Assembly (NCBI GenBank): GCA_905178155.1
Contig: CAJINV010000013.1
Coordinates: 2,050,281 to 2,114,280, forward strand
Length of the DNA stretch: 64,000 bases
Direction of reading: 5' to 3'
Source of the DNA: Amoebophrya sp. A120
Taxonomy: Eukaryota > Protista > Dinoflagellata
Below the pieces are notes generated by a model. That model was not told where the DNA came from. It saw only the letters and a program-made list of their open reading frames with translations, and made no database searches. A program made the translations under genes and the position numbers. Of the stretch, positions 6,820 to 60,700 are shown in pieces (position 1 is the first letter of the stretch; each line of letters begins with the position of its first letter).

Positions 6820-8323
6820 CTACGATTGAGAATTTGGCATCGGCTCAGACATGGGCTCTTCTACGCTGTCGTGGTTCGACGTGCTCACGCTGTTGTTCGC
6901 ACTGCCTAGGGGTGGACTCAAGTGCATCTCTTCGTCCTCTTCCTCCTCGTCCCCGTGCGGTACTTCCCCAACATCGTCGTCGACCAAGAAGTCGGGGTCG
7001 ACGCCACTGCCGTTCTCGACGTGATTCAGCTCGTCGTGGTCTCCGAATAAATGCTGGCTAAAGCCGCGCACGGAGCTTGAGTAGTCGCTTTCGCTTTCAC
7101 TGGAGCTACTGGACTCCTCCATCAGAGAGATACCGCCTATCAAATGTAAAAATGTCTGGGTCTGGAAGAATGCAAATCTGAAGCATGCAAAAATCTGTGT
7201 TGCATGATTACCAAGAGTCGTCCAGCTTTGACCAAGTCGGGAGGGAGTTTCTAATGCAGGATAGACATGAGAAAGATCGCACAGAATCTGCCATGCTAGG
7301 TCCTGCATTCCAGACCTCATGGGTCATGGAAAATCTGCATGACAATTCGCGCATTCTTCCAGACCCAGACATTTTTACACTTGACACCGCCGACGTGATG
7401 CTGATTCTTGTGCGGCTTCGGCGACCACATCGGAGCAGACGACCTTGTTCCAGCATTCACCTGTGCCGCGCTTGTTTGGTAGTTGTAATTATTGCTGGGT
7501 ACGTAATTGTGCATCAGAAAGGAGGCGCGCCGGTCCGCTTTTCGCATGGCGACGCGCGTGTGCCTGGCGGCGAGGGACTTGCGCAGGGATTCCTTGGCCT
7601 GAGAGGTGGTCTTGACGGCGAACGGGAGCAGAAGAAACCAGGAAACCGCGGCGGCCACCAGCGTGCCCTCCCACCCGAGCACTTTATGGGGTGTCAGAAG
7701 CGAAATCGACAAAAATTGGAGGACTGATTTGCCATGCAAAGAGAGGGATACCAGTTGCAGACCAGTTGCAGACAGTTTGTTTCTAAGTGGCCGCGCATGA
7801 CACACTTTGGCAGCATCGAAATCCAATTTATCATGCTGTTTGGGCAGAGAAGCTGCTTTTGTCATGTAAACCTCGAGCCCTTCTAAACACGCTTTTACTT
7901 ACTTACAATCGGCGTCACTTGCCACCGCCGCTCGCAAGACAGGCAGTTTGCGCTTTGGATTTTCTGCATTTTGCAGATTAAAATTTCAACTTTGTCAATT
8001 TCGATTCTGACACTTCCATACACCTCCGTGATCACATACTCCGCAAACGCCGCGAGGAAGTTGACCCAGTCGACCCAGACGCGCAGAAACGCGAGCACCC
8101 CGTAGAAAAATTCGTGTTGCGCCTGCGGCCTCAACCGGCTCGAATCCGGCGGGAGCAGGGTGGCGTAGTGGTAGACCAAGCCGCCGGAGAGCTCCCGCAG
8201 GGCATGCTGGGCCGCGATGGTTTCCATCAGCGTGTACGTGCTCACGACCCAGCTGCACAAAGCAAAACCGGCGAGCTTTCTCAGCCGGGACACGCGCGTC
8301 AAGCTGCTTCGCGTATGCAACAA
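6820..8323 (-). CDS. Hypothetical membrane protein with acidic C-terminus, split by two introner elements; 5' end may extend upstream
   Basis: ORFs 7895..8323, 7317..7865 and 6820..7320 join in frame (YVITEV|LGWEGTL and HHVGG|ISLMEE) after removing 341 and 254 nt; several hydrophobic segments. Confidence 0.7.
7138..7386. mobile_element. Introner element, family A
   Basis: TIR tatcaaatgtaaaaatgtctgggtctggaagaa / ttcttccagacccagacatttttacacttgaca; TSD ccgcc at 7133-7137 and 7387-7391; very similar to 37083-37344 but 13 bp shorter; GC-AG ends possible. Confidence 0.95.
7685..8020. mobile_element. Introner element, family D
   Basis: TIR tatggggtgtcagaagcgaaatcgacaaa / tttgtcaatttcgattctgacacttccata; TSD cactt/cacct; homologous to 33810-34116 in the opposite orientation. 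Confidence 0.9.
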
Positions 8324-9819
8324 GATAGAACTGCTTTGGAGAAGCGTTCGCCCTCGTATCCGTTGTATTTTTGGGTCGTCGAAACGTACTTACTTACTAG
8401 TACAACTAGGCGTGCTCTCTTATCGACGGAGGAGGTTCTTCCATGGGGCCACTAATATAGAAGCCATAGAAAAATCCTCTAGTACTAGAACAATCATCAT
8501 GGTCATCGTCATGATGAGTGGCTTTTTTACGGATATTATCGACTTGTCCTCCTGCGAGGAGCTATCAAAAGTAGTGGTATGCAAAAATGGACTGTTCTAC
8601 ACTATACGAACGAGTTGCTCATCTTCTCCTCATCAGACAATAAATCGAGGGATACCGCTCGAGCTGTGACAATTTGGATTCCAGGTCTGCAAGCAGTGCC
8701 GCCAGGGAATTCTTATCGAGGGCTTCTGCGGGTGTCGTGGAGGTCATCATCCCGCTGGTCGCCACTGCTGCGCCATTGGCTATACTAGTGCGGAGCATGA
8801 TGTTGACCTGGGCTTCGATAAATGACGTGTCAACAGACAAAGTGAGTTTCTACGTTAGATTGCTTTCTACGTGATTGAAATGGAGGACCGCCTTCTCCAA
8901 CTCGGAATAAAAGTTACTTAGTTAGTAGCCCCGATCTGCTCCTTCAAGTACGTAGACTGCCGCCATCACATTGGAAGAGGTACTGAAAACTAGGTGGATG
9001 TCAGCGGGTATTGAAAATCATAATCTACTTCGAGCAACATAGATACACCAGCTCCCGTGATAGCCGAGGAACATCAGAGGCCAGAATTGCCACCGACTTT
9101 CTGGTTAAGTAACATTACACAACTTTATACGCAACTCCTGTTGTAGTGATCTTCGAATGGACAAGGACTTGTTTCGGCACCAAAACGTCAAGAAGTGCGA
9201 CAATGCTGCATAGAGATAATTGCGATTGTTTTTCTCTGAACAAAAATATGATAAAGCACTTAAGCTTCGTCTTTCTCCTTCACCAGCAAATTAGTATCGA
9301 TTCTCGTGGTCCCTAATAAAAAATTGAGAACTTAGCATAGGCACTGATAGTGTACCTTCACTGCCTCATAATTCCTTCGACAGAGTTCAATGAGATAGTT
9401 AGCGGTACAATCGTATTCTGTTTTCTTCATCTATCGACATTGACGTACTCGTTGAGGCGTCCAACATCACGACGAACCCATGATAATGGGCATTAGATGC
9501 AACCGAAATGTGCACTCTGTGGCAGAAAAAAGGAAAATTAGTCATGGGTCGGTCCTCTCGGTGCGCTATTATGATATTAGGGCTGCGGCGTCGACACGAA
9601 GAAGTAACTTCTATTTTCCAAATTATCGTAAATAGGAACAAACAACAACAAACGAATCCAGCGATCAAAATTCAGGACACTAGAAACAAATCTGAGATGT
9701 CCCTCATGAATACTGAATATATAATTTTCAAACTCCGGACCTGCCACCTGGAACTGGTCCGCCCGATAGAAAGTAGAAGACGCCGACGTTGGTCGAAATG
9801 AAGTACATATTCATATCAA

Positions 9820-15502
<5,683 letters not shown>

Positions 15503-16299: not shown

Positions 16300-16740
16300 T
16301 GTGCGGGAGATCCGGAGAATGCGCCTTCTCTTGTTTGAAGCCGGGCAAGGCAGGCCACGGCGCCGCACCGCTCGCGCCTGCGACGAAAATCAACTTCGCA
16401 TCGATTTTTGCAAATTTGCCCGCGTTTGCTGCGGAAAACCCGGACATTGCGCCTTCTCCTGTGTGAGTGAGGCGGTTCGTTGCAGATCACGCCGCCACAC
16501 CGTTTGCGCCTTGCTTCTCCCGTTTGAGTGAGGCGTTTCGCTGTAGGCCACAGCGCCACACCGTTTGCGCCTTGCTTCTCCCGTTTGAATGAGGCGTTTC
16601 GCTGTAGGCCACAGCGCCACACCGCCTGAGGCGAGAATGAGTTTCGCATCGATTTTGGCAAATTGGCCAGCGTTTGCTGTTTCATTTTGTGCGAAAAATC
16701 CGGAAAATGCGCCTTTTCCTGCTTGAGGCGGGCCGCGGCA
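16300..16740. repeat. Degenerate tandem repeat (~120-130 bp units plus a 61-bp duplication)
   Basis: 61-bp duplication at 16500-16621; ttcgcatcgatttt at ~16395 and ~16643; core gattttggcaaattggccagcgt resembles the 18.5-kb and 30.5-kb arrays. Confidence 0.75.
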
Positions 16741-17098
16741 GGCCTGCACAGCCTTGGTGCTGGTGGAACTCATATTTTTGTTTACCCTTCTAGATGAAGA
16801 TGAACACAGAGCAAAGTAAAACTGTCTGAACAGGACGAACCCAGTAGTACCAGTAAGCCCTCTACTAGGACAGCTTGCAAATCCAAAGCACCATCGTGTT
16901 CTTTTTCAGGCTCCGTTCGTTCTTCTACGCACAGGTGCCACGCACAGATGCAACAAACATCACATGCAGCTACACCTATTTCCACATAAAAATGTAGTCG
17001 CTAAATAATTTGATAGTTTGATCAAGAACAAGTCCCCGGTCTTCGTCAACATCAAAGGGGGCAGAGCCGGACCTTGTCTTCAACTAAAAATAGGATCT

Positions 17099-18052
17099 TC
17101 AGGCACTGTGCGTCGCCAGCAAGTGCTGCTTGAGGCATGCGAGAGGGTTTGCTTTGTACTCCGGGATTTTCACGATTGTGTTGTGGTAGGCAATCTTGGT
17201 TTCCTGGTCTTCGATGCGTTTCGCCGTTTTCTTGTCGTCCTTGGTCAGCTTAGCGGTTTGCTGTTTCAACAACTTCTTCTTGCTCTGCTGCGCGGAGTGT
17301 TGTCGCAAAGCAGCTCCAATCACGCTATCCTGAGGAAAACACGTGCGTCCCCTGTCCATACTTGCCACGCAAATCCGCATGCCCAAACTGTGTGCCATGC
17401 GGAGCTCCTCATAAAAGGCATATTCTATCTATGTACTACCTGAAAATTCGTCATGCTCCAATCAGGAGAAGGAACTCGATTTGGTGTGATGCGAGTCAGA
17501 CACGACGAAGTACACTAGTTGTAATGCAAAACGGCCGAAACTTTAACTTCCTGGCTTGTGTAGCGAGTCTACCACCTTGACTATCAGGCGGGGAGGACGA
17601 CGTCGTTTTTGCTAAGGATACACGCCTGTGCGCTGTTTCAGTAGACCGCGGGCCCCCGCAGGAGGTGGACGGCTCACGACAGTACGCTTCTTCTTTTGCA
17701 AGGTCGTGTTGTTCGCCAAAACAGCACGTGTGGTTGTGCGCTGGCTTCTTCCCGCAGCAGAGGCACGATTGTGCTGCTTGTTCAATGTTGTCGCCGTTCC
17801 GGATTCTTGGTCTCCTGCTTCTGAGTCGATTTGTTCCTCCGATTCTGATCCTGACCCCAAGGTCGTATCATGATCCACCTCGTCATCTTTTATGCGCTGC
17901 TGCTGTATGCGCTGCATTTTTTTCGCCAGTTTTTGTTTCTCCTTTCGCGGCAGCTTCTTCCAAGAATCATGGGCGAGAGAGGCCGAGTCGCTCTTTTTCA
18001 CCGTCAACAGCCGATTGGCGTGAACGGCGCCGGTTCGAAGCCGCTTGCCCAT
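17099..18052 (-). CDS. SLX9/FAM207A-like ribosome biogenesis protein, 2 exons
   Basis: ORFs 17612..18052 and 17099..17398 join in frame (QRTGV|IGAALRQ). C-terminal IVKIPEYKANPLACLKQHL resembles the SLX9/FAM207A motif (by eye); basic N-terminus. Confidence 0.6.
17326..17620. mobile_element. Introner element, family G
   Basis: TIR tatcctgaggaaaacacgt / acgtcgtttttgctaaggata; TSD cacgc on both sides; an internal block matches 12212-12393 in reverse orientation. Confidence 0.9.
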
Positions 18053-22770: not shown

Positions 22771-24530
22771 TTACTCCACTGAGTTCCAGAAGTCCAGCGT
22801 GGACGTTGTGAGGGCGTTGTCCCGTTCCTTGCTTCGTATCTCCTGTATCGCCAAGGAAAGAAAAATCTAGCTGTGCACACTTGCTTTTTATTACAAGCAT
22901 TCTGCTCCGGCTCCGTACCTTGTCTTTACAATGTCCTTTGCCGTTTCAGCAGCACCGGGACCGGCCGAGACTTGTTTATAGAAAAACCTCTCCATTCCCA
23001 GTTCTTCTTCACGACAGGAAAATGCAAAAAAAGCTGCAAGAAGGACGCACTCACATGCAAAAAATCTTAAAAATGCGTACTGACTGCGTACGAAAGCTGC
23101 TTCTGCAGAGATTTCATGATGACAAGGGCGCAGCTCGAATTTCTGAAGCGACGCTTATTTCCGTCTGATAGCCTGTGCTTCGTATTCCTGGGAGAGCGCC
23201 GCTATGTCCACGTTTGCCATGTCGATTATCTCCGCTTCTGTAGATCAATTTCAATTTTAGTTTGTGACCAACATAACGGCGGATTCTTCTTCTTGCAGTT
23301 ACAACAGGGATCGGATTGGACCATAGCATACCACCAGAGGACCCAGAGTAGTTCATTTTATGCTCACTTTCTCCTCGTCGATTAAGTTTGAATAGTGCTA
23401 AAGCAATGGCTCATCTTGTTTTTCACAACTTTGTACAAAATCTACCGTCCGGCTCGGCCATCGGGTCTACTCCCATCTCCTCTTCCTCGGTGTATTGCTC
23501 TTCGTAGTCGTTATTGTAATAACTTCTCTGCTATCAAATGCAAAAGTGTCTGGGTCTGGAAGAATGCCCGATTTGTCATGCATTTTTCGCATGAGGCCTG
23601 ATGCCTGTAATGCATGTTCTAGCAACACAGATTTTTAGAGGGCTTCCTAATGCCTGTTCCGCATGAGAAATGCCCTCTCCGCGTAACACAAACTGGAGTC
23701 CTGTTGCTGGTCATGCAATACAGATTTTCATTTTTTTGGAATCCAAAGACAGCATTACAAGTTGCAATCTTCCAGACCCAGACATTTTTGCAATCCATAT
23801 CTGCTGCTTCCCGCCCTTGCCGCCACCGCTTTCTGATTTAAGACGAGAAATGGAACAGATTTTTGCTCAAAGTAGTTTGTGATACAATTACAAATGCACG
23901 GTGATTTTGTTTTTGATCCCGAAATATTATACCCGACTTTTTTCATTCTGAACCTTCAATCTAAAACGCAAGCAATACTTCCTTTCCCCTTCCCTCCTTT
24001 GCCGCCGCCTTTGTTGTTGCCTTTTGACTGCTTCCCGCCCTTGCCGCCCCCGCCCTTGCCACCTCCTGATTTCCCGCCTGATTATATTGGTAGAGATACA
24101 TCAGCTTTACATTTTGAAACAAACTAAAAGTAAAACTAAATGTCGCCAAAACCGGCATGACTTCCCGGCGGAAGTCTTGTTCTTTGCAAAGGCAAAGAAA
24201 TCCTTGTACTAGTTGGTCACAACTATTGCCAGCAAAAGGAAAATCTTAGTAAGCTCTAACCTTGCTCTCCTGCCTCCACGACGTCAAAAAGTTTTAGTGC
24301 TAACTGTGGATGAAAAATCGCTTACAACTGAAAAAACATTCCATACCGAAATCATTTTTGCCTCCTTTTCCGCCACCGCCGCCGCCCTTGTTATTTTGCT
24401 TTCCCATCGACTGTGACTTGCCGCCTTGACTGTTGCCATACTTGCCGCTGTTGCCCTTGCCGCCGCCACCCATGTTCATCTTCATCTTTCCCTGGTCGTG
24501 GTAACCGCCGCCATAGTCCTGGTACACCAT
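22771..24530 (-). CDS. Multi-exon protein with Gly/Lys-rich (GGKG) N-terminus; 3' end not determined
   Basis: MVYQDYGGGY...GGGGKGNSGKYG exon, SGGKSGGGKGGGGKGGKQSKG exon at ~23980-24080, GGKQQ|RSYYNNDYEEQY junction across the 23532 element, GTAAGT donor near 22774. Confidence 0.6.
23532..23799. mobile_element. Introner element, family A
   Basis: TIR tatcaaatgcaaaagtgtctgggtctggaaga / tcttccagacccagacatttttgcaatccata; TSD tctgc on both sides. Confidence 0.95.
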
Positions 24531-28441: not shown

Positions 28442-31400
28442 TCAACACGCATCCACAAAATCGCTAAAGGAGACCCGGCCCAGACGCGTGATCTCGTGGA
28501 GTGCCAGCTTGAAGAATTCGTAAGTGAGCCCCTCGCGAATGCTCACCCCGTGGCTCGCGTACCGCCTATGCACTGCAAAAGCATCGCACTCGTAATTTGA
28601 TTTTATACAGATTGCAATTGTTGTGCGACGGAAATGATCCATCATCATCATCATCATGATCATCATCATCACGTAGTAGACACCCGCCCCCACTTCAATT
28701 TGCATGACAAACTCCTCTATTTTTCAGAAAAAGACTGTCACGCAAGTGATACTAAGTACTGAAACCAGCACGACTGTTTTGATGCAATGCGTAGGTCCAC
28801 TGTTGCTGCAGCACCATCTGCTGGTCAAAAATTTTGATAAGCTGCTGCTCCGTGAGATCGCAGACATCCAGCTCGTTCAAGAAAGTTGGGAAAATTCTCC
28901 GAACCATGATCGATTCGTACATCCCATTCTGCTTCCCCGCGGTGGTTTTCTGGCCTTGACAGGCCGCAATAAAGACCTTCTGGAGAATGCCGTCGGTCAC
29001 TTCCTGTTTTCGAAGTTTCATACAAAAATAAAAAGAAAATTTCGGGCTTCGTATACATAGTCTTTCTGCTGCTCCGCAAGAGCCCGTAGTAAGGAGCGTG
29101 ATCAAAATTATTGATTCAATCGGTGAAGTGTGAGAACATCAGGGGAGGCTCCCTTCTTCATCATAGGAAATAAGACATCGCATAAAAGTACTTCTTATTT
29201 TCAAGAACCAAAAACAAAATTCTTACCTCCGCAGTCGGGCCTTCGTTTGGCGCGAATCCGTTCAGGCCATTGCTGTTTCCATACTGGCCATTTCTACCAT
29301 GCCGACCGGTCGCTCCATTCTCGCCACCGAAGCCCCAACCGAGGCGGTCGAAGTCTTTCCTTTGTCATGCGGAAAGGCGCGCCCTTTACGCCGGTTTGCG
29401 CAGCCATAATCAATCGAATCCGTGGTACTTAGCAAAGAATAAGAAATGCATCACGATTCTTCGGATAGTAAGCATAAAAGGATAAAAGCGCGACGAGGTA
29501 GTGCTTTTTAAGTAAGTACTTCCTCCAAGGTGATGTTAGAGAGATGCCAGTGTCTTGCTTTCGAACCCAACAAACACACATGCAAGAGCAAAAATGTTAG
29601 ACATGCAAATCACAGTTCTTGGCAGAGAAATTTGATGAAAGGCGTGACCAATAGTCTTTTCCGCGCAAGCCGTTTGGTGCCTTGAATTCGCTTCGATATG
29701 CCGAAACGGTTCCGGAATTCCTCATCGGACAAAGTTTCGCCCGTGTTATCAACTGTAAAAGTGTCTGGGTCTGGAAGATTGCCAGGTTTGTCATGCACAT
29801 TTTGCATGACTCCTGATGTCTGTGATGCATGTCCTAGCATCACAGATTTTGTGAGGCTTTCCTGATGCCTATACCGCATAACAAATGCTCTTTCCGTGTA
29901 GCAAAACTTGGACTCTCTTTGCTGCTCATGCAATACAGATTTTTTTAGAATCCAAAATCAGCATGACAAGTTGGATTCTTCCAGACCCAGACATTTTTGC
30001 ATTTGATACGTGTCTCGGTTCACCCAATTCCCATTTTCGTCCAGATACCACTATCAGGCACAAAAAAGCAGGCAGGTCACATCTGTATTGCAAAAATAAA
30101 TACTAAAAAACCTGCATATCCATAACAGCGTGCTATGGCTGTGTATCTATTTTTGCATTATGCCCTGCCTGCTTTTTTCTCTGGGATAACCACCCGTCGG
30201 GAACCGCGTTTTCGTTCTCCATTTTTTCCAGAAATCTGCGCCTCTATTACAATGAAAAATGCCCCCACCCCAGAAGCATTGCAAACCCTTCCAATGAAAA
30301 CACTCGCCCGCTTGCATGTATTAACATCACAGATTTGGAATCGTGAATAGCGAAAATTTGTATCGCAAAAGATCCCTGCAGGAGCGGCGATCGTCATGCA
30401 AGCGATGCTCCTGTATACGACCACTAGACTCTGCATCCGGAGTGCCCAATTGTAAAACGCATGAAAAAAATGAAAAGTCCCTGTTTCGACGGCTGAGGGC
30501 CGGCAGGTAGTGGGCGCAGGCGTTTGAAACGAAAAAAAAAATCCGCCTGTTTTGAAAATAGATAGCCACCGTCCTGTTGTTGCAAAACGCATGAAAAGAA
30601 TGAAAGGTCCCTGCTTTCACGGCTGAGAACTGGCAGGTAGTGGGCGCAGGCGTTCGAGACGAAAAAAAAAAATCAGCCGATTTTGAAAAAATGGCCAGCG
30701 TCCTGTTCTTGTAAAACGCATGAAAAAAATGAAAAATCCCTGCTTTGACGGCTGAGGACCGGCAGGTAGTGGGCGCAGGCCGCTGAGACGAAAAAAACAA
30801 CTTACCCGATTTTGAAAAAATGGCCAGCGTCCTGTTCTTGTAAAAATCCCTGCTTTCACGGCTGAGGACCGGCAGGTAGTGGGCGCAGGCCGCTGAGACG
30901 AAAAAAACAACTTACCCGATTTTGAAAAAATGGCCAGCGTCCTGTTCTTTTAAAACGCATGAAAAAAATGAAAAATCCCTGCTTTCACGGCTGAGGACCG
31001 GCAGGTAGTGGGCGCAGGCCGCTGAGACGAAAAAACCAACTTACCCGATTTTGAAAAAATGGCCAGCGTCCTTTTCTTGTAAAACGCATGAAAAAAATGA
31101 AAAATCCCTGCTTTCACGGCTGAGGACCGGCAGGTAGTGGGCGCAGGCCGCTGAGACGAAAAAAAAAACTTACCCGATTTTGAAAAAATAGCCAGCGTCC
31201 TGTTGTTGCAAAACGCATGAAAAAAATGAAAAGTCCCTGCTTTCACGGCTGAGGACCGGCAGGTAGTGGGCGCAGGCGGCTGAGACGAAAGAAAGAACTT
31301 AGCCGATTTTGAAAAAATGGCCAGCGTAATGTTCTTGCAAAACGCATGAAAAAAATGAAAAATACCTGCTTTCACGGCTGACGGCCGGCAGGTAGTGGGC

Positions 31401-35384: not shown

Positions 35385-35675
35385 TATGCATCGCAAATAT
35401 GGCTGGAGGGTCTGGAAAGTTGTCACGCTTGGCTAACAGGAAAGAAAAATCAGCTATGCTTGTTCGCTGCCCTAGAGCGTCGCTTTCATTTTGTGCTGCA
35501 TGAAAGTGTCACTCACGTTCCGAAACACAAACACGCAGTCGCTTAATAGGAACTACTTGTCAAGTACATACAACCACGTGGCCTTGATGTAATGTGAATA
35601 TTGGACTTGTTCAAGAACATCTATCATTGCAGTATAACTTCATTCCCGGCCCGGACTACATATTTGCAATCGATA
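35385..35675. mobile_element. Degenerate introner element, family A-like
   Basis: TIR tatgcatcgcaaatatg / catatttgcaatcgata; eroded TSD cgtgc/cacgc. Confidence 0.7.
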
Positions 35676-35971
35676 CACGCTCAATCGACGCAATCTCCTC
35701 CTCCACGAATTCCTTCTTTTGCAGCCGGGTTTTCAAATATAAGAGCGCACAACGCCCCCATCCCTTCCCTGAAGTGCATAACGAGCCGCATCACAAATTG
35801 CCTATTACTTACACGCGGAGCTTCTACATGAAGACTAAATTCGCGCACGGGGTGTCGTGCGAGCAGTTTCTGGGCGGCTTCCGAAATTTCTATAACCTGT
35901 GGTCATGCAGCAAAGCGCGCCAAAACAAGGAAGGGCTTGGCCGCTAGTGTAGTCGTTCGCATTCTGCGACA

Positions 35972-38900: not shown

Positions 38901-41900
38901 GTCTTGTCGCGTTTTGGTTCTTTTGCTTCGTCGCATCTTCTTCTTCCGAAGATGACGACGCGACCGTCGTGGACTGCTCCGCGGTCAGTGTCGACGGACC
39001 GGGCGCCGCTAGAACAGACTGGTCTCGTCGTCCTTTTTCGCCTGATATTACCGCACCTGCTCCTTGATGACGACCTCTTTCCGCATCGCTCTGACTAGTA
39101 CTGCTTCCCCCGCCCCCGTCGGCCTGACAATCGTGAGTTTTGTTCTTATCTGCAGCCACGTCGTCAGTACCGAAAGCCAGTCTCTCCTGCTTTAATACCG
39201 GGGAAGTAGACGAGGAAACTTCGGTAGTACCACCTACGATGTTCTGGCTCTTGTCTGCGGCTGCAAACAGCTCCCGGCCCGCAACCATCAGATCCAAGAC
39301 CGGCGACCCCGAGCCGAGGCCGTTGTACGTCAACGCGTTTGCGTCCAGATGGTTACCTTGATGGTCTGGATTGGACACGAAGTTCGACGCACCGTGCTCG
39401 AAATTTTGGTCCCCACCTCCAAACATGCCCCCAGCCGCTGCTCTGTCGGTCAAACCGCTGTTGTTTGCGTGCGCGAAGAGTTTGTTCGCCAGCGACTTGT
39501 GCAGCGAGTGGTCCTTGTGCTTGTTCAGCATGTCAGGAAACAACACGCGCATCGAGGAGTTCTTGGGCGGAGACCGAACCCCGGGCAAGGAGTTGCGGTG
39601 CTGCGGTCCAGCTCCAATTGCGTGTCGTTGGCCGCGATCCGCTTCCAGTCCGACCCTGTGATTGCCCAAGAACTGCTCGTGGTCTCGAAGCGATGATTCT
39701 ACGTCGTTCGGGAACATTGGAGAGAAGTGGGAGGAGAAGTCAATCTTGCTCATGGCCTGCTCCAAACCCTTGCTGACGTCTTCTACATTCATCGAGGACC
39801 CACTTGCTGCCGTTGCCGCCCCGTCCACCTGCAGAAAGTTTTGGCGCTCCTCGTGTGGTCCATTATTTGAGGAAGTCTGATTGACATTTGTTCCCCGCCG
39901 GACCAAGTGCGCGTGCTGGGTGTTGGTGTTGGCTTCATCAAGAAGAAAAATCCCCCCTTCCCATATGAAGGTCGCGCCCGGAGGGCGATATTGGTAACCA
40001 AATGCGTGCGCGAAATTCTAACCAGCGCGAAAGCCTAACCAGCCGCGCGGCGAAAGCGCGGCCCTGCGGGCCGCGCTTTGGCGCTATTTATTTTTGATTA
40101 CAGTCCCACTCCTTCTTCTGCAAGCCCCCTGCATGAGAAACTGGCCCCCTGGCCAGGAAGGTATCATCTGGGTCATCGGGGGCTTCCGGATTCGCATTCA
40201 AAGCTTATCGCAGGAGCCTGCGGGCCGCCGCGGGCTCCACCACTTCCCCGCGGCCCTAAAGGGCCGCGGACAACTACTGTCGCCCGCGGCGGCCCGCAGG
40301 CTCCTGCGATAAGCATTGAAGGCGAAATCCGGTCTGCTATTTCGCAGCGGGGCATCCTCTCTAGCCCCCTGCGTGACAAACTGGCCGCCTGGCCAGGAAG
40401 GTATGCGGAAAGCCGAAAACCCGCGAACCCTTCCGGGCAACCAAAATCGGCCATTTCAGACGCGGCGGAGGTCCCGAATTGGTGCTCACAACCCCGGCCA
40501 AATCGGGATTTTGGGACATGCCTCCGCCCGCTTGTAGTGCGTTTTTTTTTCCCAATCGCGATGGTACGGCGCAAGCGCGCGCCCGCCGGACCGCCCTTGG
40601 CGGCCAGTTTGTAAGCCTGCCGAGGGTTCTCGATTTTTTTCAATTTTCGCTCTTTTTTCTGGTTCTTAGGTGGCCGAAGGGCTCTGGACATTTTCACCGC
40701 CCGCAGATGACTGGCAGTTTTGAAGCCTGCGGAGGGATTGCGCTTTTGCGCAATTTTTCATCTTTTTTCATTTTTCAAGTGGCCCGGGCGACCTGCACAT
40801 TTTTACCGCCCGCATCTGTCTGGCAGTTTTCAAGCCTGCGGAGGGATTGCGCTTTTGCGCAATTTTTCATCTTTTTTCATTTTCCAAGTGGCCCGGGCGA
40901 CCTGCACATTTTTACCGCCCGCATCTGACTGGCAGTTTTCAAGCCTGCGGAGGGATTGCGCTTTTGCGCAATTTTTCATCTTTTTTCATTTTTCAAGTGG
41001 CCCGGGCGACCTGCACATTTTTACCGCCCGCATCTGTCTGGCAGTTTTCAAGCCTGCGGAGGGATTGCGCTTTTGCGCAATTTTTCATCTTTTTTCATTT
41101 TCCCAGTGGCCCGGGTGATCTGGACAAAATCCGACGATTGCTTCCGCCCACGTTATGAAGCAAATTTTTGCCATTTTTTTCCAACTTTTTCCAGTTACGA
41201 AGCGGCCCAAGGCTTCCGAACAGGTCGCGGGCCTGCTTCTCCAACGCAGCTGGCCAGCGGGCGGAGCAAAAAATAGTCCGTGTCTTTTTCAGATATCAAG
41301 TGGGCCAAACCGCAAAAATGCTCTTTTTTAACCTTCTCCCGCTTGGTTTCTCCCATTTTTGCGACATTTTTGACCTCCTGGCCATTTTCCCATCTGGTCC
41401 GCTTTTTTTCCCTTCTCCCGCTTCATTTCTGGCCATTTCCCTGACCTTCACGCCTCCCGGCGGTTGCCCTATATGGTAACGGCAACTGCCTTCGCGCTGC
41501 GTTTGCTAAAGCAATATCGCAAGCGCGCAGAGCGCGCGCGCCGGCTTCGTGGGCCGGCGCGCGCTCTGCGCGCGCGCGCGCACGCATTTGGTTACCAGAT
41601 CATGTGACGCAGATTCGTCGCCACAAAACATCAGCTTCGTCTTGCAGAAACGAAGCGGAGGCGCATGCTAGGCTTGTCTCGGTTTCTATATGTCAGCAAG
41701 ATAGATGTTTCTGCTGGTGGCTAAAACTCATTACAGATAGCCCGCTCAGTGCGTCGCTTCGCTCGTGCTTCATCAACGAAAGTATGCAATACAGGGGCAT
41801 TTGCACACACAAATCAGCAACGCAAGTTTCCTTGTGGTGCATTGTCGATATGGGGTGGGCTTTTTTCCTTGCGATAGGTTTCGTTATATCGCTCCATCAA

Positions 41901-44900
41901 ATCGATCATGGGCGACTGGATTGGGCGAATCGAGGCCTTCGGCAGCCCGGCGGGCCGCAGTTTGTAGGTGATCCCCGTTTTCTGGTTCGTGTAGGATCCC
42001 GTGGAGGTCGCGCTCGTGTTGGTCATCGGTGATTGGTTGTTGATGTGGTCAAGCGAGGTTGTACTAGGACTGTTGCCGAACTGGAACTTGTTCGAATGCT
42101 TTTTCGTCCTTCTTGGCTGCGAGGAACGGGCCGCTCCTGCACCATCCGTAGTTGCACCAGCTAGGCCTGTTGATCCATTCTCGCTGTAGGCCATCGCCCC
42201 GTTTGCCCACTCCGACCCTGCGGGCCGGCCGTCCGGCCGCTCCAGTTGGATGCCCGCGCGGGCCCAGGAGGGGACCGCGTGCATTTCCGGTTCGTCCTCC
42301 GTCTGGGATGAAAACGGGTCGTGTTGCGCATCAAGGTTGGTGCGGTCTTGCATTTTCGGTTGTGGTTCTTGCGGGGGAAGAACTACGCTGTCCTCAACTA
42401 CACTCGCGGTTCCTGTGCTAATGTTCCCACCGGGGGCCGCGGGCCCGACGTATTGCCACGACGACCCGGATGAAGATGAACCACTCCCGGCCGCTGCTGC
42501 AGTCGTGCTGGCCGCGTGGTCCAGCACGACTGGGTCTTGCACGACATTGGCGTTCAGAACTGGTGGGAGGGAAAATTCCCGGCGATCTCTCTCGGTGTCA
42601 GCGGAGGATGAAAAGTCGATCCGCCGCCGCCTTCGCGGAACCTCGCCAGCAGAAGTCATATCTTCTGTTGTACTATCGAACAGACCGCCGTGATTGTTGC
42701 TGTTTCTCCTCCAAGAACCTCGGCCTGCTGCTCCAGCGGCCCCTTCTAAATCGTGGAAGTCGACCGATCGGGAGTGCAACGCAGTCGCGTCGTCGTCCCA
42801 AAGCGCCGACTGCAGGTGGCTAGCTGCACCGGGCGAGTTGAAAAACTCGACACTGTTGCCACCGTTTAAACTGTCGAACTCGAAACTCGTATTTTGATTT
42901 TCCTTGTCCTGGGTCGTGGTGGAAAAGTAGCTGCTGGTCGCCCAAAACTTGCTGTTGTTGTAGTTCGCGGCCCCCTTCGGCCGTCGCGACTTGCTCCCGC
43001 GCATCCGGTTCATCTGCTCCTTGTGCTGCTTGGTCAGCCCCAGGTGGTACTCGAAGGTGCGCGCCGTCTGGTGGCTGTTGTTGACGAAATTCGTGCTGTA
43101 TGCCTTGCAAAAGTGTCGCACTCGTACTAGTTTTTGCAATGCCGTATGACAAATCTACTTTCCTACCTGAACCAGCACGTACCTTATCTTCAAAAATTTG
43201 GGAAAATAAATGCCAGTGCAACTCCTACGAGCAGTGCGATACTTTTGCAATGCGTATGCTGGTTAAGGAATTGATCCCCATCATGGAGTTCGCCCGGCTA
43301 CTCATCATTTTCCCTTTCGTCCGAGTACTCACCGGCCCGCGTTGCTTCACCGGTGACCAGGATTGGGTAACCCACGGCTGGTTAAAGTCATCGTGGTCGA
43401 CGGACGCGTCGTTCGCGTTGTTGTGCAGCTGCTCAGCACTGTTCCCAGCTGCCCCGGTCTCCCGAAACCGGTCAGAGTCATCCCGGGTAGTCCAGATTTT
43501 CGACGTGGCTTCCTCCCGATGCAGGTCGTGGTCGAAGATGTCTTTATTATTGTCCTGACTCGTGTAAAACCCGCCGCAGAAGGTCGCGCGCTTGCTCGGA
43601 TTCGCACCGGTGTTCTTGCTATGATTCAACTGGTTGGAGTTCCCGGGCTGCTCCAGCGGATCGACGTAAAAAGAAGTCGGCTTATTGATATCCGGCAGGA
43701 AGTGTAGGCTCGGTGGGGCGATAGTTGTGATCGGCGCCGCGACCTATTGCAAGGAAAAATAAATCCCCCCTCCCCATATCTATAATTGATCAGAACGAAA
43801 TTTACTCTGATGCGCAATTTGCGTACATAGAGCGATCATTTCTTGGTATTGCTAGAAGGCGAACAAGAGACACACCTGCGCGCAACCATTTGCAGGAAGT
43901 TTGCCATGCTATAATTTCGCGCTTGCAGTTGCAGCTTCTTGTCATGCTGAAGCCGCAAGGCTTTCGCTTTCCCGCGCCAGCCAGCAAGACCGTCCGCATC
44001 TCTTTCCTCCTAGCATGCAAACGCGATTTCGGAAGAGCGCAAATGAAATAAGGCCACAGAAATCTCCATTTCAGGTATGGGGAAGAGAAATTTGTGATTT
44101 TCATACGACCGCGACGGGCTTCTGGCTTGCTGCCTGGTGGAATGGATCGCGATGATCATAATGTGGATCAACGTCCTCTTTGTTGCTACTAAATGCCTGA
44201 CTGGTCGTGGCATTTGCCTGGCTGGTGTTGACCCACGAACCACTGCCCTCGTTCCACGTATTCCGGTACGAGTTTTTGTTTTGGATTTTGTGCGCAATGC
44301 TGGAAAATTTCTCCTCGCGATGAGTGGGCGATATCCACCTGCACAACTCCTCTCGTCCCTTTCCTCATTTCTTGAACAGCATGAGCAACAACCGCAACAC
44401 AGTAGCAATGGCACAAATCGGTTGATTGAGCTTAAAAGGGTAGGTACTACTGCTTTAGGTTCCAGAATATCTTCCCTTCTGCAGACAGTGCTCAGTAGAG
44501 GCAGGATGTTATTCCGGATTTCGATAATTTGGCAGATATTGCATCAAAAATGAAGGGGAAGGGGAGTTGTGCAATCTCATAGTCGACGACGTTGACGTCG
44601 AATACTGTTGGTACTGCTGCTCGACGGGGGCCATGCGGAACATGTCGTCCGTAATACTCTGCTTTTTCTTACCTGAGTGACAGAGTGAAAACAATTGATA
44701 CTATTTGCGGCCGTAACATCTACATCATTCTTTCCCATAGCAATCTTTGTTCGTTCTCTTGTTTCAGTAGAAACAAGAAATTACATCAATCTGGCTGTAG
44801 AACTACTCCATCTACGCATGGCATACTTGATTTCAATCAAAGTTCTTTATTGAAAAGCCCAAACAGAATACGTCTTATCTGTCCGAGGTCCCGAATCTTT

Positions 44901-45987
44901 TCGTCAATCCGCCTCCGCCGTAGCGACATCTCCCGTCTTTGCAGCGCAAACCGCTTTTGCGTGGTGGCCAGGGTTTTCTGTTCGGGTGACCGAAAAAAGG
45001 ACTGGTCTGTGTTGGAGAAATCCTGGTCCGGGTTGGGAAAATTGAAAAACTCGCTGTCCTTCAGGTCGGCAAAGTCCACGGAGAAATCATCCAGGTTCTG
45101 GGACCTTTCGTTCGAAAACTTGGACTATCAAATGTAAAAGTGTCTGGGTCTGGAAACTTGTGATGCTGAGTGGCGTAGCATGAGGAGGCCTCAAGTGCTG
45201 GCTCAGCATGACAAATTTCTGAGCTTGTAGATGTTGCCTATTCTGCATGACAAATTGCGTCTCCGCATGACAGAAAAATGCTGCTCTTGCGCAACGTGCA
45301 TGACAGATTTAAGAGTCATGCCAGACAAGCATGACAAACATGCATTCTTCCAGACCCAGACATTTTTACATTTGATATGGACCAGTGCGAGCTCTGCGTC
45401 GTCGACAACATCTGGTGATTGTGCTCGTAGTTACTGTTTCTCGTTCCCGTGCGTGACCAGTTTGAGTTGTTGGCCGTGCCGTTGCGCGTACCGCTGGTGC
45501 CAATCCGACTGTTGTTGCCCGTGCTGTTGGCTCCGTGATTTGATGTTGTAGCTCCACCTCGACCGCCTCTAGTGTGCATAGCTCCACCTCCACCGCTGAA
45601 GTCGAAGCCCGGCGCCGGCCACTCTTCCCCGGTTCCAGTCTCGTCCAAGTCTCTGCTGTCGAAAAGCATTGCTTGGTCGAAGTCATCCAGCTCTTCGTCT
45701 TGAGTCTGCGAGTAGCTCATCATTTGCGATCGCGAATTCGGGTCGTGTTCGTCGAGAAAGGGGCGCGTTTGCTTGTTCAGCGAGTCGCTGTTCCCGTTGT
45801 AGGTTTCCAGCTTCGCCGCCCGCCCGGTGGTTTTGTGGTTTTTCGACCGCTTCTTCTTCCCCGCCTTGAAGCCGGGCACGTCCGGCAAAATCAGGGGCGG
45901 GGGGTTGTAATAATCAGACGACATGCTGCTGTAGTTGTGCTGCGGTTCCACTTGGTCCGCCGCAACGGCCGTCGACCCAGAGGACAT
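35972..45987 (-). CDS. Very large low-complexity (Ser/Gly/Asn-rich) protein, multi-exon; linkage at 44.3-44.8 kb unresolved
   Basis: In-frame joins after element plus TSD removal: HWS|KFSNE (45126), KPVAV|AAPI (43745), LTS|TNF (43099), YNET|NTNTQH (39936), AREA|SVERR (37083); includes the 874-aa and 441-aa ORFs. Confidence 0.75.
37083..37344. mobile_element. Introner element, family A
   Basis: TIR tatcaaatgtaaaagtgtctgggtctggaagaatgc / gcattcttccagacccagacatttttgcatttgata; TSD cgctt. Confidence 0.96.
39992..41597. mobile_element. Nested non-autonomous element with 21-bp TIRs, GC-rich hairpins and internal satellite
   Basis: Perfect TIR tggtaaccaaatgcgtgcgcg at 39992-40012 and 41577-41597; hairpins at ~40053-40079, 40203-40314 and ~41523-41573; no clear TSD. 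Confidence 0.88.
40694..41115. repeat. 109-bp tandem repeat, about 4 copies
   Basis: aagcctgcggagggattgcgc at 40723, 40832, 40941, 41050. Confidence 0.97.
43099..43256. mobile_element. Introner element, family C
   Basis: TIR tatgccttgcaaaagtgtcgcact / agtgcgatacttttgcaatgcgta; TSD tgctg; 163-nt removal restores the frame. Confidence 0.94.
43745..44105. mobile_element. Introner element, family B, with GT-AG ends possible
   Basis: TIR tattgcaaggaaaaataaatcccccctccccatatc / ggtatggggaagagaaatttgtgattttcata; TSD cgacc (GGTCG on the sense strand). Confidence 0.9.
45126..45377. mobile_element. Introner element, family A TIRs with a different interior
   Basis: TIR tatcaaatgtaaaagtgtctgggtctggaa / ttccagacccagacatttttacatttgata; TSD tggac. 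Confidence 0.95.
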
Positions 45988-47693: not shown

Positions 47694-47767
47694 CTGGTAT
47701 TGTTAGGCACTGTCTTGAGACCGGTTCAACGCGTCGTCCCCTCCTGCGGCGGGACCAGGGGCTTTGG
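47694..47767. repeat. 74-bp dispersed copy of 51727-51800
   Basis: ctggtattg(t/g)taggcactgtcttgagaccggttcaacgcgtc(g/c)tcccctcctgcggcgggaccaggggctttgg; 2 mismatches. Confidence 0.95.
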
Positions 47768-51717: not shown

Positions 51718-54700
51718 CTACTGAAACTGGTATTGGTAGGCACTGTCTTGAGACCGGTTCAACGCGTCCTCCCCTCCTGCGGCGGGACCAGGGGCTTTGG
51801 GTCGGCGACTGCGCGGTGCAGAGCTGCTGATGGGTGCAGTGTCCAGCGATGCTTGAGTCAGTGGGATTCCAACGGACGCATTCATCTCCCGCTCCAGCGC
51901 TTTCTTTTTCTCCCTCCGCTCCGTCTCGTCCTTCCGCTTTTGCTTAATTTCTTCCTCTTCCCTCTGCATTCGCTCCTCTAACTCGATCCGTTCTTTCTCC
52001 TGCTTCTCCCGCAGTTGCCTCTGGATTCGGTCCTTTTCCTGGCGGTACTTTTGAAGCTGTCGCCCCTGTTCTTTCAAATACCGTCCTTCTTCCTTTTCCT
52101 CCTCGAGTGTCAGCACCGTGACTATCCAACGTAGAATATCCGCATACAACATGGGCTTGAGGACCTTGTGGGATTGCTGGACATGCGGTTGATCGAGGTA
52201 GTCCATGTACTCTCGCCTTGCTTGTAGCAGCTGCCGGACGAGGCCGTAGTCGCTCTCGCTCTGCGGGGCTTCCCAGAGCCGAGCCTCTGTCCATTTCCTC
52301 GCTAACACACTCTTCCAGTGCGTACAGCTCTGGTGCGAGAGTATGGCACTACCGTCCGCAGAAAAATTTTCATTCATCCAGAAATCGAACAACTTGAGCT
52401 GGGCGTTCACAGGAAGGTTGCGGTCGACGGTGAAATTTTCGCCGGTCATCGTGGTCAGCCCCGACATTTGTGAATCAACATCGCCGTCATCCGAGTCCGA
52501 CCCTGCATCCGATTCCTCCTCCACCATCAGCTGCTCCTCCTCCTCGTCGCCCTTCTCATTCTGATTCCACTCCACAGAATTCGCGATGTTGTGGTACAGC
52601 TGGGTAATGATGGGCCCCGTTCCTTCGACTACCCCACAGGGGAAGCGTTGCTCGTCTGCAGCTTGTGTGTAAAAAAAGTAGGGGTTCCGGTTTTTGAAAT
52701 CGAAATTCAACCGGTTGCCCTCTTCGTACTCGACCGCAAACTGCCCTAGGTTTCTTCGCTCCCCCGTGCTGCGCTTCACACCAATCGGATTCTCCTGCGG
52801 CATGTACTTGGACTCGTGGTTTTTGCTGCGTTTATTGGGCCTGTAGTTGTTCTCGTTGTTGGCGCACGTAGAAGTCCTCTCGTCCTGCTCGGGGTTGTCG
52901 GACAAACTGCTGCACAGTTGATCTCCCTCGTCGCGGCCCTGCTCATTTTTAATGACCAGGGAGGACCGATTTTTGTCGTCGCGCCAGGCTGAATGATCAT
53001 TATCTTCTTGGTTTTTGTCCCAGGAAACCCATTTATCTTCGTCGTAGTCCTTGTTCCAATCTGATGACTTTGAAGATGACGACCAGGAATTGTTGTAGTT
53101 GTTTCCGCCTTTCTTCTTGCTACTCTCCCATTTGTTGGACGACCAGGAGCCGTGGCCGTTGCCCCACTTATTGCTGTTACCGCCCTCGCCCCAGGTCGTG
53201 GTGGAACTGGAAGACGAGGATTTCATATTTGTTCCCGAGTTGGTGTAGTCATGGTTGCTGTTTTTCGTCCACGATCCTGTGCCCCAGTTCTTGTCGTTGT
53301 GGTCCTCTTTTTCAACATCTCTGTGGTCGTCCGCACTCCACGATCCTGTCCCGGCGCCCCAAGGGGATTTCTTATTTTTGTTCGTTCCCCAAGAAGAAGA
53401 CGCCTTGTTGTCCTTCTTTTTCCAATCTGGCTGCTGCTCGTCCCTGTCCCACTTGCTCGAGTCATACGACTTGTTGCTGGAGTTCTTATTCCAGGACGAA
53501 TTGCGACTGTAGTCTTCGTTGAATTTTTCGCCGCTCGCGGAGCAGTTGTCCTGCGCCTCGTGGTCCTCTTTCTCGACGACAAACTCTTCCTCCTCCTCCT
53601 CCTGCGTTGGCAGCAGCACGCCGGGTTTAATATTTTTGGCCCTAGAAGTTGTTGTAGTCGTTGTCGTGGCGGTTATCATTTTGCTAGAAGAACAAGAAGT
53701 ACTACCCGTCTTAGAAGCAGCTGCTGGTGCTGCTGTTGCAGTGGTGCCATGATTTGTTCTATCGGCGCAGGAGCCCCCGGCACCAGCGACCGAATTGGCT
53801 TTCGCTTTCCCCTCAGCGCCGATCGGGTTCTCCATATTGTCGCTGACGCACGAGGCCCGAGGACTAGGAACCATTTTTCTTTTGCGTTGCTGCTCATCAA
53901 CATCCGGTGAGAAGGATCTTCGTGTGCTGTGGACGATCACCGTGGCTGGCGTTGGCGGATCCTCGTCCACCTCGCTGTTCGGGCCGCGCTGCGGAGTAGA
54001 TGAAGAAGGACCAGACGTGGGCGATTTTTTATTTCTAGTTTCTTGGTGCCCGACGTCCTCTGCAGCTGTACCTATTTTCTTCTTCGTCTTTTTCTCTGGT
54101 TGTAGCTTCGCGGAGATCCCGCCCATGGCGCTCATCCAGTCGTCATCCAGGTCCGCCTATGCGATACAAATATGTCGTCCGAGTCTGGAAACTTGTGATG
54201 CTGGTTGGAGAAAGACGAGCACGCCTCAACAATTTTTGGCTGTCAAGTGCATGACACGTTAACGTTTTGGAGATTGATACTGTAGCGTTGCATGACAGAA
54301 CAAAAGGTCTTGGGTACTAGTAACTTGCTCATGCTAGCAGAGCATGACAAACCCTGCACCTTTCCAGAGGACCCAGAGGACATACTTATTTGCAGTGCGT
54401 ACCGCCACGCCACTGAACAGAGAGTTCTTCCCCTTGGTCTGCAGCAGCGAACTTTGTCAAGCAAAAAAGTGTTAACGTTAACGGTTTTGGGGCATTGCAC
54501 TCACGCATGACAGATTTTCGCTATCATGCATGCTAGGAAATACAAATTTGGGCATCAGTTCTCGTGCATGCCTGGATACTAAATTCCGTTAACGTTTAAC
54601 ACTTTGTCGTGTGATAAACTTTGCCATTCCTTCATGGAGAGCTTCCCGTTGGAATTCCCCGCCCGGTCCAACAGTTGCATCATCGTGTTCATTAGATCCG

Positions 54701-57700: not shown

Positions 57701-60700
57701 CCAGATGATGACGTGCTGCCGTACTTGTACTCATCGTGCTGTTGCCCCCCCTGCCCACGGCCCTGTCCGGCGTAGCTCCCGTCGTGGTCGTACCAAGAGC
57801 TGCTGCCAGAGTTGTCGTCGTTGTCTCCAGCAGACGACGACGCACCATTTGATGCGTCTTTGTTGTTATTTCGGTTGTAGTAGTTGTTATTATCATTTCC
57901 TTGTTGGCTATAATAACCTCCACTAGAATAATTACGGTCGTTCTCGCCATAATTGTCATTGTTGTAGTTGCTCGACGAGGCAGACGTCCACGTTTTAGTA
58001 TTCACGTTGCTACTTCCCCCGTAGCTGTTGTCTGCCGCCCCCGACGACGATGCACCGCTGCCCTTGTAATTGTTCTGCTTCTGCGTGTAGTCGATCCTGT
58101 TGTTCTGCGTGTAGTCAATCTTGTCTCCCCGGTTGCTGAAATTATTGTTGCTGTTCGCGTTTATATTGTTGTGGTAGTTTTTGTCATCAGGAGTCGGGGT
58201 CGAGCTGTTGTAATTACTAAAATTATTGCCGTCAGGAGCATAATTCATCCCCGACACGCTACCGGTACCACCACCCGTCCGGGCGTTTGGATGCACGTAC
58301 CTGTTTTCGCCTCCGCTGGGCAGCTTCTTGTCGAGGTAGCCGCGGCCCGACTGCTGCTTTTCTGCGCTCGCACGCCAGTCGTCGCTGCTCAAAACGCGTG
58401 CAGTGCGGGAGCTGCTCGCCGTCGGCAGAGGACCGCGGCTTTTTGATGTTGTATTGGTCCCCGATGAACTGTGAGCAGTGGTCGAAAAAGTTGTAGTGGT
58501 ACCGCTACCATATCAAAATGAAAAATCCCCCCTCCCCATATTGAAACGTAAATTTCTGCTGCTGGATTTGTGTACACAAATCAGCCCTGTCTTGCAACGA
58601 GGCACTGCAGGCAAAGCCTCAGTCTGCGTAGGGCTGTTTCTGTGTAGGTGCTTAGCATAGCAGAGACATTCGATGTAGGCATAACAGGATTACAAATCGC
58701 CGGCATAAAGCGGCGGACTCTTTGCATTTGCCCCCTTGCAAGAGCGATTTGTGGTCACAAATCAGCATCACAAATTTTTAGCAGCATGCCTTTTCAGTAT
58801 GGGGTGGAGGGGGGATTTTTCCCTACGATATACCACTACTAATCCCAATCCCGTACACCGCCGCCACCGCCACAAATTCCTTCTTCGAGTCGTTGCCCCG
58901 GGATTTCGGATTGCGCGCCAGCTCGAACTCCCAGCACTGGCCCTTTGCGAACCTTTTCGCATGGTTGTCGCCCCAGAAGTGGACCCGGTGGTCCACATCC
59001 GCGAGTAAAATCCCGTGGTCGCAAAGCAGGTTCTTCGACCGCAGTAGTGCGACTTTTCCGTACTTTATATGGTAAGGAAAAATGAATCCCCCCTCTCCAC
59101 ATCGACAAGGCATGATCCTTCTGAAAATTTGCAGAGCTGATTTGTGGCCGCAGAAGATCATGGCGGCTGTCTTGCAAGTAGAAGGCAAATCTAGAATGTC
59201 CGCCGCATTATGGTAAGTACGCAGGCAGATTGTGACTCTGCTAGACCCACAGGGCGGCAGACGTCTGGCATGCAGCTAAGTGGCGACCGCAGAACATTTT
59301 CCCTGCCCAGGCTTTGTATCTACTTCCTGCATTCCGCCACTGAAAGACAAAGCTGCATTTTGATATGGGGAGGAGGGATTTTTCCGCACAATACTTTCCC
59401 TCCCGGATTTCCCCATGGTGCCAGTACATTGCCTCCACCACTTCGCCACGGAGCCGCTCCCGAATGCGGAAAGCTTCCTCGAGCGGCAGCGCCGCCTCTT
59501 CCTTGGGCGGAATTAGCCCGCTGACGTCTTTCTGCTGCTGGCGCAACGTGGCCAGAGCCAGCATCTCCAACGGGCTCGTCCCTTGCTGAAACTCCGCACT
59601 TACCGCCTTGAAGTAGAGAATCTTCGTAGTTGTTGTTTGTAGTTCCTGCTGTTCACCAAAAATACCAGTCGTCGGAGTAGAAAAAGAAAAATCCGCACTG
59701 GCACTACTACTCTGCAGTTGTACGATCTCCACCTCTGCCTCGGCTAATTTGAAGCTAAACTTCTGCCCCATTTGGAACTTATCAATGCCGCTCCGCCGCA
59801 TCACGTCCGACCAGTGCAACAGCACGCTGCCAAGAAAGTCCTTCGGCGCAATCAGCACCGCGTACTCCGTGGAACCAGACGACTCATTTTTCCCCCCGTG
59901 CACCGACTCCACGACCCCCTCGAGCCGTTCCTGCAGCGCGCACAGCTCCGCCTTTGTCCGGGTTCCGGGAAACAGATCCGCTGCAGCCGCTGCTGGAGTC
60001 GTGGTTGTACTTTTACTGTTGCAGTTATTTGTACTTCCTGGCGCCGTTTTCATTGAAGTCGCGCACTTATCGGCGGGCGAACCGTCCTGCTCGATGTCTC
60101 CTTTAGCGGAAGCAGCGACATCAGCCACAGCGTTTTTATTGCTGTCAGGAAGACAATCATCTAGTAACGAAGCACCGGACGAAACACCAGAGTCGTTGAT
60201 CGCCAACATGTTCATAATATCCGCACCAGTGGAAGTGCCACAACCTCCTGAGCATCCTGATTCATCCTGCGTTGCCAGAATCTTCTTGTTCCCGATTGTA
60301 GAAGAAGTAGAAGTGACCACAAGCTTCTCCGACGACGTAGCCGCATCTTTATCTTTTTCTAAAGATAAAGAATTGTTCATCGCGGACGAGGAGCTACTAA
60401 ACACTTTCGGCTCCTGTGGCATGCGCTTCACCACCTGCTGCACGGTGGTGCTGATGGGTTCGTGCGGGGTCTTGCCACCGCCGCCCCCCGGGCTGCTGTG
60501 CAAACTGTTACAACTGTCGGCTTCATCTTGGTTGGGTGACACGAACTGCTCCAGCGAATCGTGCTGAGAACAATGAGAGGACCCAGCAGAATCGAACTCA
60601 TCCTTGTTTCCACGAAGTACAGAACCCATCGTGGTGGTCCCCCTCTGGTCAGGGGACGCGCAGGACCGCTCTTCCACGGCTTCCACCAATTTCTGTTCTT

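Follow-up and report, generated by a model that had tools for sequence, protein, structure and literature searches.

When a transposon comes to lie within a gene and its ends supply no GT-AG pair, how is it taken out of the message? The question is raised by a 64,000-nt stretch of the genome of Amoebophrya sp. A120 (the window, hereafter), in which the host genes examined lie on the minus strand and which holds at least 44 elements with terminal inverted repeats (TIRs), TAT…ATA ends and 5-bp target site duplications (TSDs). One host gene is purA, encoding adenylosuccinate synthetase (Table 1). These elements are the published introners of Amoebophrya A120, so that the system itself was already known. 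They insert with a 5-bp duplication and are removed at the RNA level at a fixed register, independently of TSD identity and of GT-AG. The single register fixed by transcripts, the independence from the TSD and an asymmetry between the two ends are new here.

A single register at the transcript junctions

Junctions were read from transcript contigs of runs X3-X6, all from one sample; the RNA status of these runs is a guess on record, yet their contigs skip four GT-AG introns. On purA, 15 of 18 joints are listed, each in four of four runs. Eleven of them remove elements only and three remove GT-AG introns; the remaining one spans a GT-AG intron, a micro-exon and a further element. A single X3 contig, read across adjoining pieces, supplies another two junctions (7680-8020 and 8310-8655). 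Wherever an element's junction was readable (14 of 14), transcripts lose exactly the element plus 5 nt. A first-pass annotation made from the sequence had proposed that each element leaves with one TSD copy, and all 13 lengths that it quoted equal the element plus 5.

The register can be read because the two TSD copies often differ, so that the transcript reveals which copy survives. Position 5 of the TSD is kept from the downstream copy in seven elements (8314, 9949, 10200, 11213, 13914, 14846 and 15170) and position 4 from the upstream copy in five (10200, 10999, 11213, 11475 and 13031). Two joints, at 10200 and 11213, are without any slack, and none of the 14 elements conflicts with a single register. 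The intron is N + TAT…ATA + NNNN whatever the flanking letters: it takes in one base ahead of the 5' TIR and four bases beyond the 3' TIR (N-TAT…ATA-NNNN; register 4). Splicing purA at register 4 yields 434 aa and the best orthologue match (355 identities to P0004, vs. 347-351 for registers 0-3), and register 5 leads to a stop at codon 33. No fixed register for Amoebophrya was found stated in the literature searched, which excluded figures and subscription papers.

All 12 purA elements are spliced out precisely in the four runs, to give a full-length conserved enzyme. A purA exon is 100% identical to the Amoebophrya sp. A120 protein P0001, the public purA model, which retains the element at 9949-10122 and has a wrong C-terminus; transcripts drop this element and the conserved end is restored (window 9903-10122). 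The register also offers a rule for mending gene models.

At register 4 the 42 tabulated elements start with GT (16), AT (10), CT (8) or TT (8) and finish with 12 different dinucleotides; none of them is GT-AG, and canonical U2-type GT/GC…AG ends are lacking. GT/GC-AG is absent at every allowed register in all 11 purA elements computed (of 12). Among 233 copies from other loci, GT-AG at register 4 occurs in seven, vs. about seven expected from base frequencies. The annotation had obtained GT-AG at 43745 and GC-AG at 7138, 30245 and 54158 by sliding the junction through the TSD; such readings exist, but not at the register that the RNA uses, and are likely due to chance.

Does removal then depend on the duplicated target or on the stem, as the annotation proposed? 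Across the 14 confirmed elements, decay has reached 22 of 70 TSD sites, compared with three of 84 end-triplet sites that depart from TAT/ATA (Fisher p=3e-6). RNA joints fixed 13 of these elements, and seven in purA as well as 8314 had escaped the motif scans, so that ascertainment bias is limited. Elements with two or three of five TSD sites decayed are cut at the same register, including 10999 and 11213, where only two of five sites match, and two junctions are unambiguous solely through decay. TSD identity is not needed for removal, and this part of the proposal finds no support. The stem fares better: predicted end-to-end pairing exceeds shuffles in eight of 12 folded confirmed elements, although the terminal TAT:ATA pairs reach P>0.5 in only four of the 12 and the ends are asymmetric. 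Four elements (8314, 9949, 11475 and 13031) have little predicted end pairing and yet keep both end motifs and register. The TIR stem likely helps removal and, from these folding predictions, does not look essential.

Elements also nest. In purA three copies lie inside other introns, two within older elements and one within a GT-AG intron. Some contig pieces of low depth retain the outer element and end precisely at 13466 (in three runs) or at 14232 (in one), which fits inner-first removal of nested copies. A micro-exon of 8-9 nt (14542-14550) separates a GT-AG intron from an element.

Copies in other loci and the asymmetry of the ends

Metagenome contigs were scanned with the exact end pattern of family A, giving at least 151 stretches, of which 80 listed rows come from one contig set; the loci used number 145 (598 kb). 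Of 31 paired family A copies, 27 have a TSD of exactly 5 bp, and none has one of 4 or 6 bp. A second scan of the loci, blind to the first three bases, found 331 pairs, vs. two in 294 kb of shuffles. We kept 293, dropping pairs longer than 1100 nt, those whose TIRs matched weakly and those in which the end triplets had changed more than once. Their length plus 5 is distributed evenly modulo 3 (102/94/97), and of 85 decisive frame tests 80 favor the deletion of element plus 5, which together with the 14 transcript junctions upholds the annotation's view that removal is not GT-AG-based. Family A lies both ways round in transcripts (27 vs. 34).

The strand of 233 of these copies was called by a codon model. 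At TIR position 1, variants number zero at 5' ends vs. nine rows (eight distinct) at 3' ends (p=0.008), and at position 3 eight vs. two (p=0.11). The window adds zero vs. two and four vs. zero, respectively, bringing the totals to zero vs. ten (p=0.002) and 12 vs. two (p=0.013). Thus the T at +2 never varies in the 233 copies whereas its mirror base does, and variants of the A at -7 are fewer than those of the mirror position (2 vs. 8). As the two biases run in opposite mutational directions, strand-biased mutation would not explain both, and such asymmetry points to the reading of sequence. AG at TSD positions 3-4 is not enriched (18/233), and 216 of the 233 copies are incapable of GT/GC-AG at any register. 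Codon preference on 24 mismatched-TSD copies from other loci did not discriminate registers.

A CATG-centered motif is about 16-fold enriched within elements. The family A end pattern had no match in viral contigs. In three stretches (L009 6001-7255, L023 6001-6800 and L041 1-1143) family A ends adjoin long interiors of unrelated sequence, which may have been captured or may belong to longer elements truncated where the contig stops.

Possible routes of removal

What machinery could read such ends? We lean towards a relaxed spliceosome that recognizes U+2 together with a predicted branch A at -7 and finds the 3' cut by distance. In this view the TIR's initial T would substitute for the U of GU, an A lying three bases in from the 3' end would serve as branch nucleophile, G+1 and the terminal AG would be disregarded together, and the TIR stem may draw the ends together in place of U1. 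A joint loss of G+1 and the terminal G fits the known mutual contact of these bases. U1 is reported as not detected, and nearly all spliceosomal proteins are reported as present. A putative single transposase would make the 5-bp staggered cut. Since each TIR contains the two signals, insertion in either orientation at any exonic site would create an intron, and because the cut removes 1+4 of the ten TSD letters, the reading frame is restored. The fullest form of this proposal, which we hold tentatively and rate a little below even, is a second splice code, N/UAU…A-U-A-NNNN/ (slashes mark the cuts): a spliceosome without need of G+1 and terminal AG would read only U+2 plus a branch A situated 7 nt from the junction, measuring the 3' cut, TIR transposons with TAT ends and a 5-bp stagger would be scar-free introns in either orientation at any site, and nested copies would leave inside-out like twintrons. 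If true, the register would explain how TIR elements invade exons without an AG in the target. It makes exact predictions: a donor U+2, a branch at -7, and free bases at +1 and -4 to -1.

Published sites speak for it. In the excerpts of Farhat et al. (2021; PMC7789003) available, the predominant sites of Table S4 number nine for A120, each of which has T at +2, and nine for strain A25, each TT-NN, with inverted repeats (IRs) that start TTA; U+2/A+3 hence recurs in a separate invasion. Several observations weigh against the spliceosomal proposal. Its central step is an inference, the lariat and branch point being predictions. The A at -7 varies in two of 233 copies and the surrounding bases misfit the U2-pairing consensus, while the RNA-confirmed GT-AG introns of purA look ordinary, so that two modes would share one machine. 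Fixed spacing and paired ends resemble euglenid introns too. The asymmetry test was prompted by the window data themselves and depends for strand on the codon model, which placed 34 of 38 window elements toward the true strand and four slightly negative, none past the calling cut-off. The RNA evidence is one sample's contigs, from which minor isoforms drop out, and 15 of 18 purA joints.

A separate route of euglenid type, in which an endonuclease and ligase or a second complex binds the paired ends, cuts at a fixed distance from the stem and releases circles, seems to us somewhat less likely. Euglena has an analogous ruler (5'-N3CDG…CH'GN5-6/R, with paired ends and circular excised RNA; PMC12501133, in excerpt), and both the stems predicted in eight of 12 confirmed elements and the dispensability of G+1 and AG would suit it. 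Against it, the four confirmed elements with little predicted pairing keep their register, the 3' terminal A varies while its would-be partner, the 5' T, does not, and U+2/A+3 mimic a spliceosomal donor in both strains. Joint recognition of the TIR stem and duplicated target, for example through aligned TSD copies, was the annotation's own version and would account for removal of always element plus 5 nt; with TSDs that decay freely and a register that holds where two of five sites match, it is very unlikely.

Excision could instead occur in DNA of the expressing nuclei, transcripts then copying element-free DNA. Such a process would be likened to the loss of internal eliminated sequences in ciliates, and the TA-type ends and transposon anatomy are in its favor. 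However, X1 contigs cross the elements gap-free (X1 is possibly the source of the assembly itself), some contigs lack a GT-AG intron yet retain an element (X4 record 10, X3 record 5), and the cut is polarized by transcript direction though families insert both ways; we regard this route as more improbable still. That the loci are pseudogenes, or that nearby GT-AG sites are used, has in its favor only that four elements can be slid to GT-AG or GC-AG, and deserves next to no credence; for purA it is refuted by the precise splicing described above.

How do the elements compare with known systems? Excerpts of the cited papers show many likenesses. The published A120 and A25 introners (Farhat et al., 2021; PMC7789003) come from the same organism and have inverted repeats, in A120 with the motif TAT+7+AAA, direct repeats of 3-5 nt (5 bp in the legend of Fig. 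S19) and RNA-supported non-canonical introns. Non-canonical introns make up over 60% of the total in Amoebophrya, whereas those of strain AT5 are reported to be canonical. The annotation's identification of its elements with these introners is borne out by motif, TSD and RNA loss without GT-AG. Splice sites there are described as variable relative to the hairpin; here one register holds in 14 of 14, the TSD is dispensable and the ends are asymmetric. The A120 families of Gozashti et al. (2025; PMC12130899) are likewise mostly TIR DNA elements of 150-350 bp with largely non-canonical sites, and for one family manual inspection gave a TSD of 5 bp; in the 19 of 58 A120 rows available TSDs are 2-5 nt, splice sites fall into three categories and a single register is absent.

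Euglenid non-conventional introns also have paired ends, TSD-like repeats and a fixed spacing of stem and cut without GT-AG, and excised circles are reported for them (PMC12501133, PMC11282704; excerpts). Their signature is N3-CDG…CHG-N5-6, unlike the N1-TAT…ATA-N4 found here. A MITE-like origin (from miniature inverted-repeat transposable elements) is shared with introners of Micromonas and Aureococcus, but in these algae one canonical site is part of the introner and the second is recruited from the TSD, whereas the elements here need neither. In Fritillaria borealis the U2 spliceosome can adapt to non-GT-AG ends; its introns prefer certain terminal dinucleotides, in contrast to the free +1 and -4 to -1 positions here (PMC11282704, PMC9860276, PMC13326754; excerpts).

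Anatomy and census of the elements

The census began with a blind scan for identical 5-mers flanking inverted repeats, and was extended by an end-profile scan, RNA junctions and a relaxed scan. The blind scan gave 40 pairs; 17 had TAT/TGT/TAC ends, their TIRs matching at 16-21 of 22 positions. Each of three shuffles yielded four or five weak pairs and none TA-ended at both ends. The list of more than 25 TIR elements with 5-bp TSDs in the first-pass annotation thereby stands and grows to at least 44 (Table 1), many older ones having been missed. Its TA…TA end rule is shared as claimed and is more exactly TAT…ATA: 5' triplets in the 42 tabulated elements are TAT (37), TAC (4) and TGT (1), and 3' triplets ATA (38), ATG (2) and ACA (2). 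The ends read TAT-N7-AAA plus mirror, fitting the published A120 IR motif (TAT, seven loose bases, AAA). TSD copies are identical in 20 elements and differ at one site in ten, two in eight and three in four. Exceptions to a coding location are 15513, in the 5' untranslated region, and 10584.

Deletion of the elements rebuilds a conserved protein motif and an EF-hand-like loop, as the annotation stated. Pfam EF-hand matches for an exon neighboring the loop at 34203 are weak and below cut-off, and a homologue search with this gene gave no matches.

With TIRs, a constant TSD, no coding capacity and many dispersed copies, the elements have the features of MITEs or non-autonomous TIR transposons. 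No transposase was matched by Pfam in 17 window open reading frames (ORFs), nor found by inspection and a crude motif search among 221 ORFs of the metagenome loci, long or unpaired elements included; none was found in A120 by Farhat et al. (2021; PMC7789003, in excerpt). Gozashti family 38, with TIRs and integrase-like homology, is a candidate mobilizer by description (Gozashti et al., 2025; PMC12130899, in excerpt). Shared ends, the 5-bp TSD and the internal CATG motif make a common mobilizer plausible on sequence grounds.

Table 1. Features of the window (element labels in the text are left coordinates; the left coordinate of purA is approximate)
Feature	Position	Strand	Evidence
purA, adenylosuccinate synthetase; 12 element introns, 4 GT-AG introns	9800..15502	-	transcripts, protein match
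TIR element, family A, TSD identical	7138..7386	-	blind scan; transcript piece begins at 7386
TIR element, TSD differs at 2	7685..8020	-	transcript skips 341 nt, register 2-5
Old TIR element, weak stem, TSD differs at 1, 5	8314..8654	-	transcript skips 346 nt, register 1-4
purA TIR element, 3' end ATG, TSD differs at 5	9949..10122	-	joint 9944>10124, register 0-4
Old purA TIR element, TSD differs at 4, 5, ends GT…CG	10200..10511	-	joint 10195>10513, unambiguous register 4
TIR element nested in purA GT-AG intron	10584..10793	-	blind scan
Old purA TIR element, TSD differs at 2, 3, 4	10999..11176	-	joint 10993>11177, register 4-5
Old purA TIR element, TSD differs at 2, 4, 5, ends GT…AT	11213..11412	-	joint 11208>11414, unambiguous register 4
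TIR element splitting TTGR/PRRCGW, TSD differs at 1, 4	11475..11720	-	joint 11469>11721, register 4-5
purA TIR element, TSD identical	12212..12393	-	joint 12206>12394, 187 nt
purA TIR element, TSD identical	12847..12967	-	joint 12841>12968, 126 nt
Old purA TIR element, 3' end ACA, TSD differs at 2, 4	13031..13281	-	joint 13025>13282, register 4-5
Outer purA TIR element, TSD differs at 3	13310..13821	-	joint 13303>13821, register 3-6
Inner element, inserted at 3' end of 13310-13821	13312..13466	-	blind scan; X3, X4, X5 pieces stop at 13466
Outer purA TIR element after micro-exon, TSD differs at 5	13914..14541	-	joint 13913>14731, 4 micro-exon letters between, register 0-4
Inner element nested in 13914-14541	13926..14232	-	profile scan; X4 piece stops at 14232
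Old purA TIR element, 5' end TAC, TSD differs at 3, 5	14846..15119	-	joint 14841>15121, register 3-4; register 5 gives stop codon
purA family A element splitting a protein stretch, TSD differs at 1, 5	15170..15450	-	joint 15165>15452, register 1-4
Family B element directly upstream of purA start codon	15513..15916	-	blind scan, sequence
TIR element, TSD identical	17326..17620	-	profile scan; transcript piece ends at 17320
Family A element	23532..23799	-	blind scan
TIR element, 5' end TAC, TSD differs at 3, 4, 5	28567..28793	-	
Family A element	29747..30008	-	blind scan
TIR element	30052..30188	-	blind scan
1816-nt element filled by ~129-bp tandem array	30245..32060	-	self-comparison, blind scan
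TIR element related to 10584	32120..32331	-	profile scan
Family B element	32916..33274	-	blind scan
TIR element, TSD differs at 2, 3	33320..33647	-	
TIR element related to 7685	33810..34116	-	blind scan
TIR element in EF-hand-like loop, TSD differs at 5	34203..34472	-	
TIR element related to 30245	34969..35290	-	profile scan
TIR element, TSD differs at 3, 4	35385..35675	-	
Candidate old element, strong stem, TSD differs at 3 sites	35738..36015	-	sequence, predicted fold
Family A element, 88% identical to 7138	37083..37344	-	blind scan
1941-nt element, ~109-bp tandem array, 3' end ATG, 0 Pfam matches in 5 internal ORFs	39936..41876	-	self-comparison, profile scan
TIR element, 5' end TAC	43099..43256	-	blind scan
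TIR element, GT-AG possible at register 1 only	43745..44105	-	profile scan
Candidate old element	44332..44581	-	sequence, predicted fold
Family A element	45126..45377	-	blind scan
TIR element, 5' end TAC	54158..54401	-	profile scan
TIR element, 3' end ACA	54455..54616	-	blind scan
Family B element, orientation opposite to 32916	58511..58830	-	blind scan
Family B element, TSD differs at 1	59068..59393	-	profile scan
Old TIR element, TSD differs at 3 sites, outside range of first-pass annotation	61722..62430	-	profile scan, sequence

Both long elements owe their length to internal tandem arrays (30450-31948 and 40605-41126) and not to a transposase gene. Self-comparison also revealed tandem arrays outside the listed elements, at 18437-19780 and 16300-16744. 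On the interval 7138-8020, the 2026 RNA runs X9 and X10 gave 14 and 9 reads, nearly all of which run into unlike sequence and match the element ends only; this pattern suggests a related strain with the same families at other sites. Two intervals outside the 44, 61498-61663 and 22980-23170, were picked out by eye as possible very old elements with decayed TSDs. A 74-bp stretch occurs twice at 97% identity (47694-47767 and 51727-51800), one copy near the end of a long ORF.

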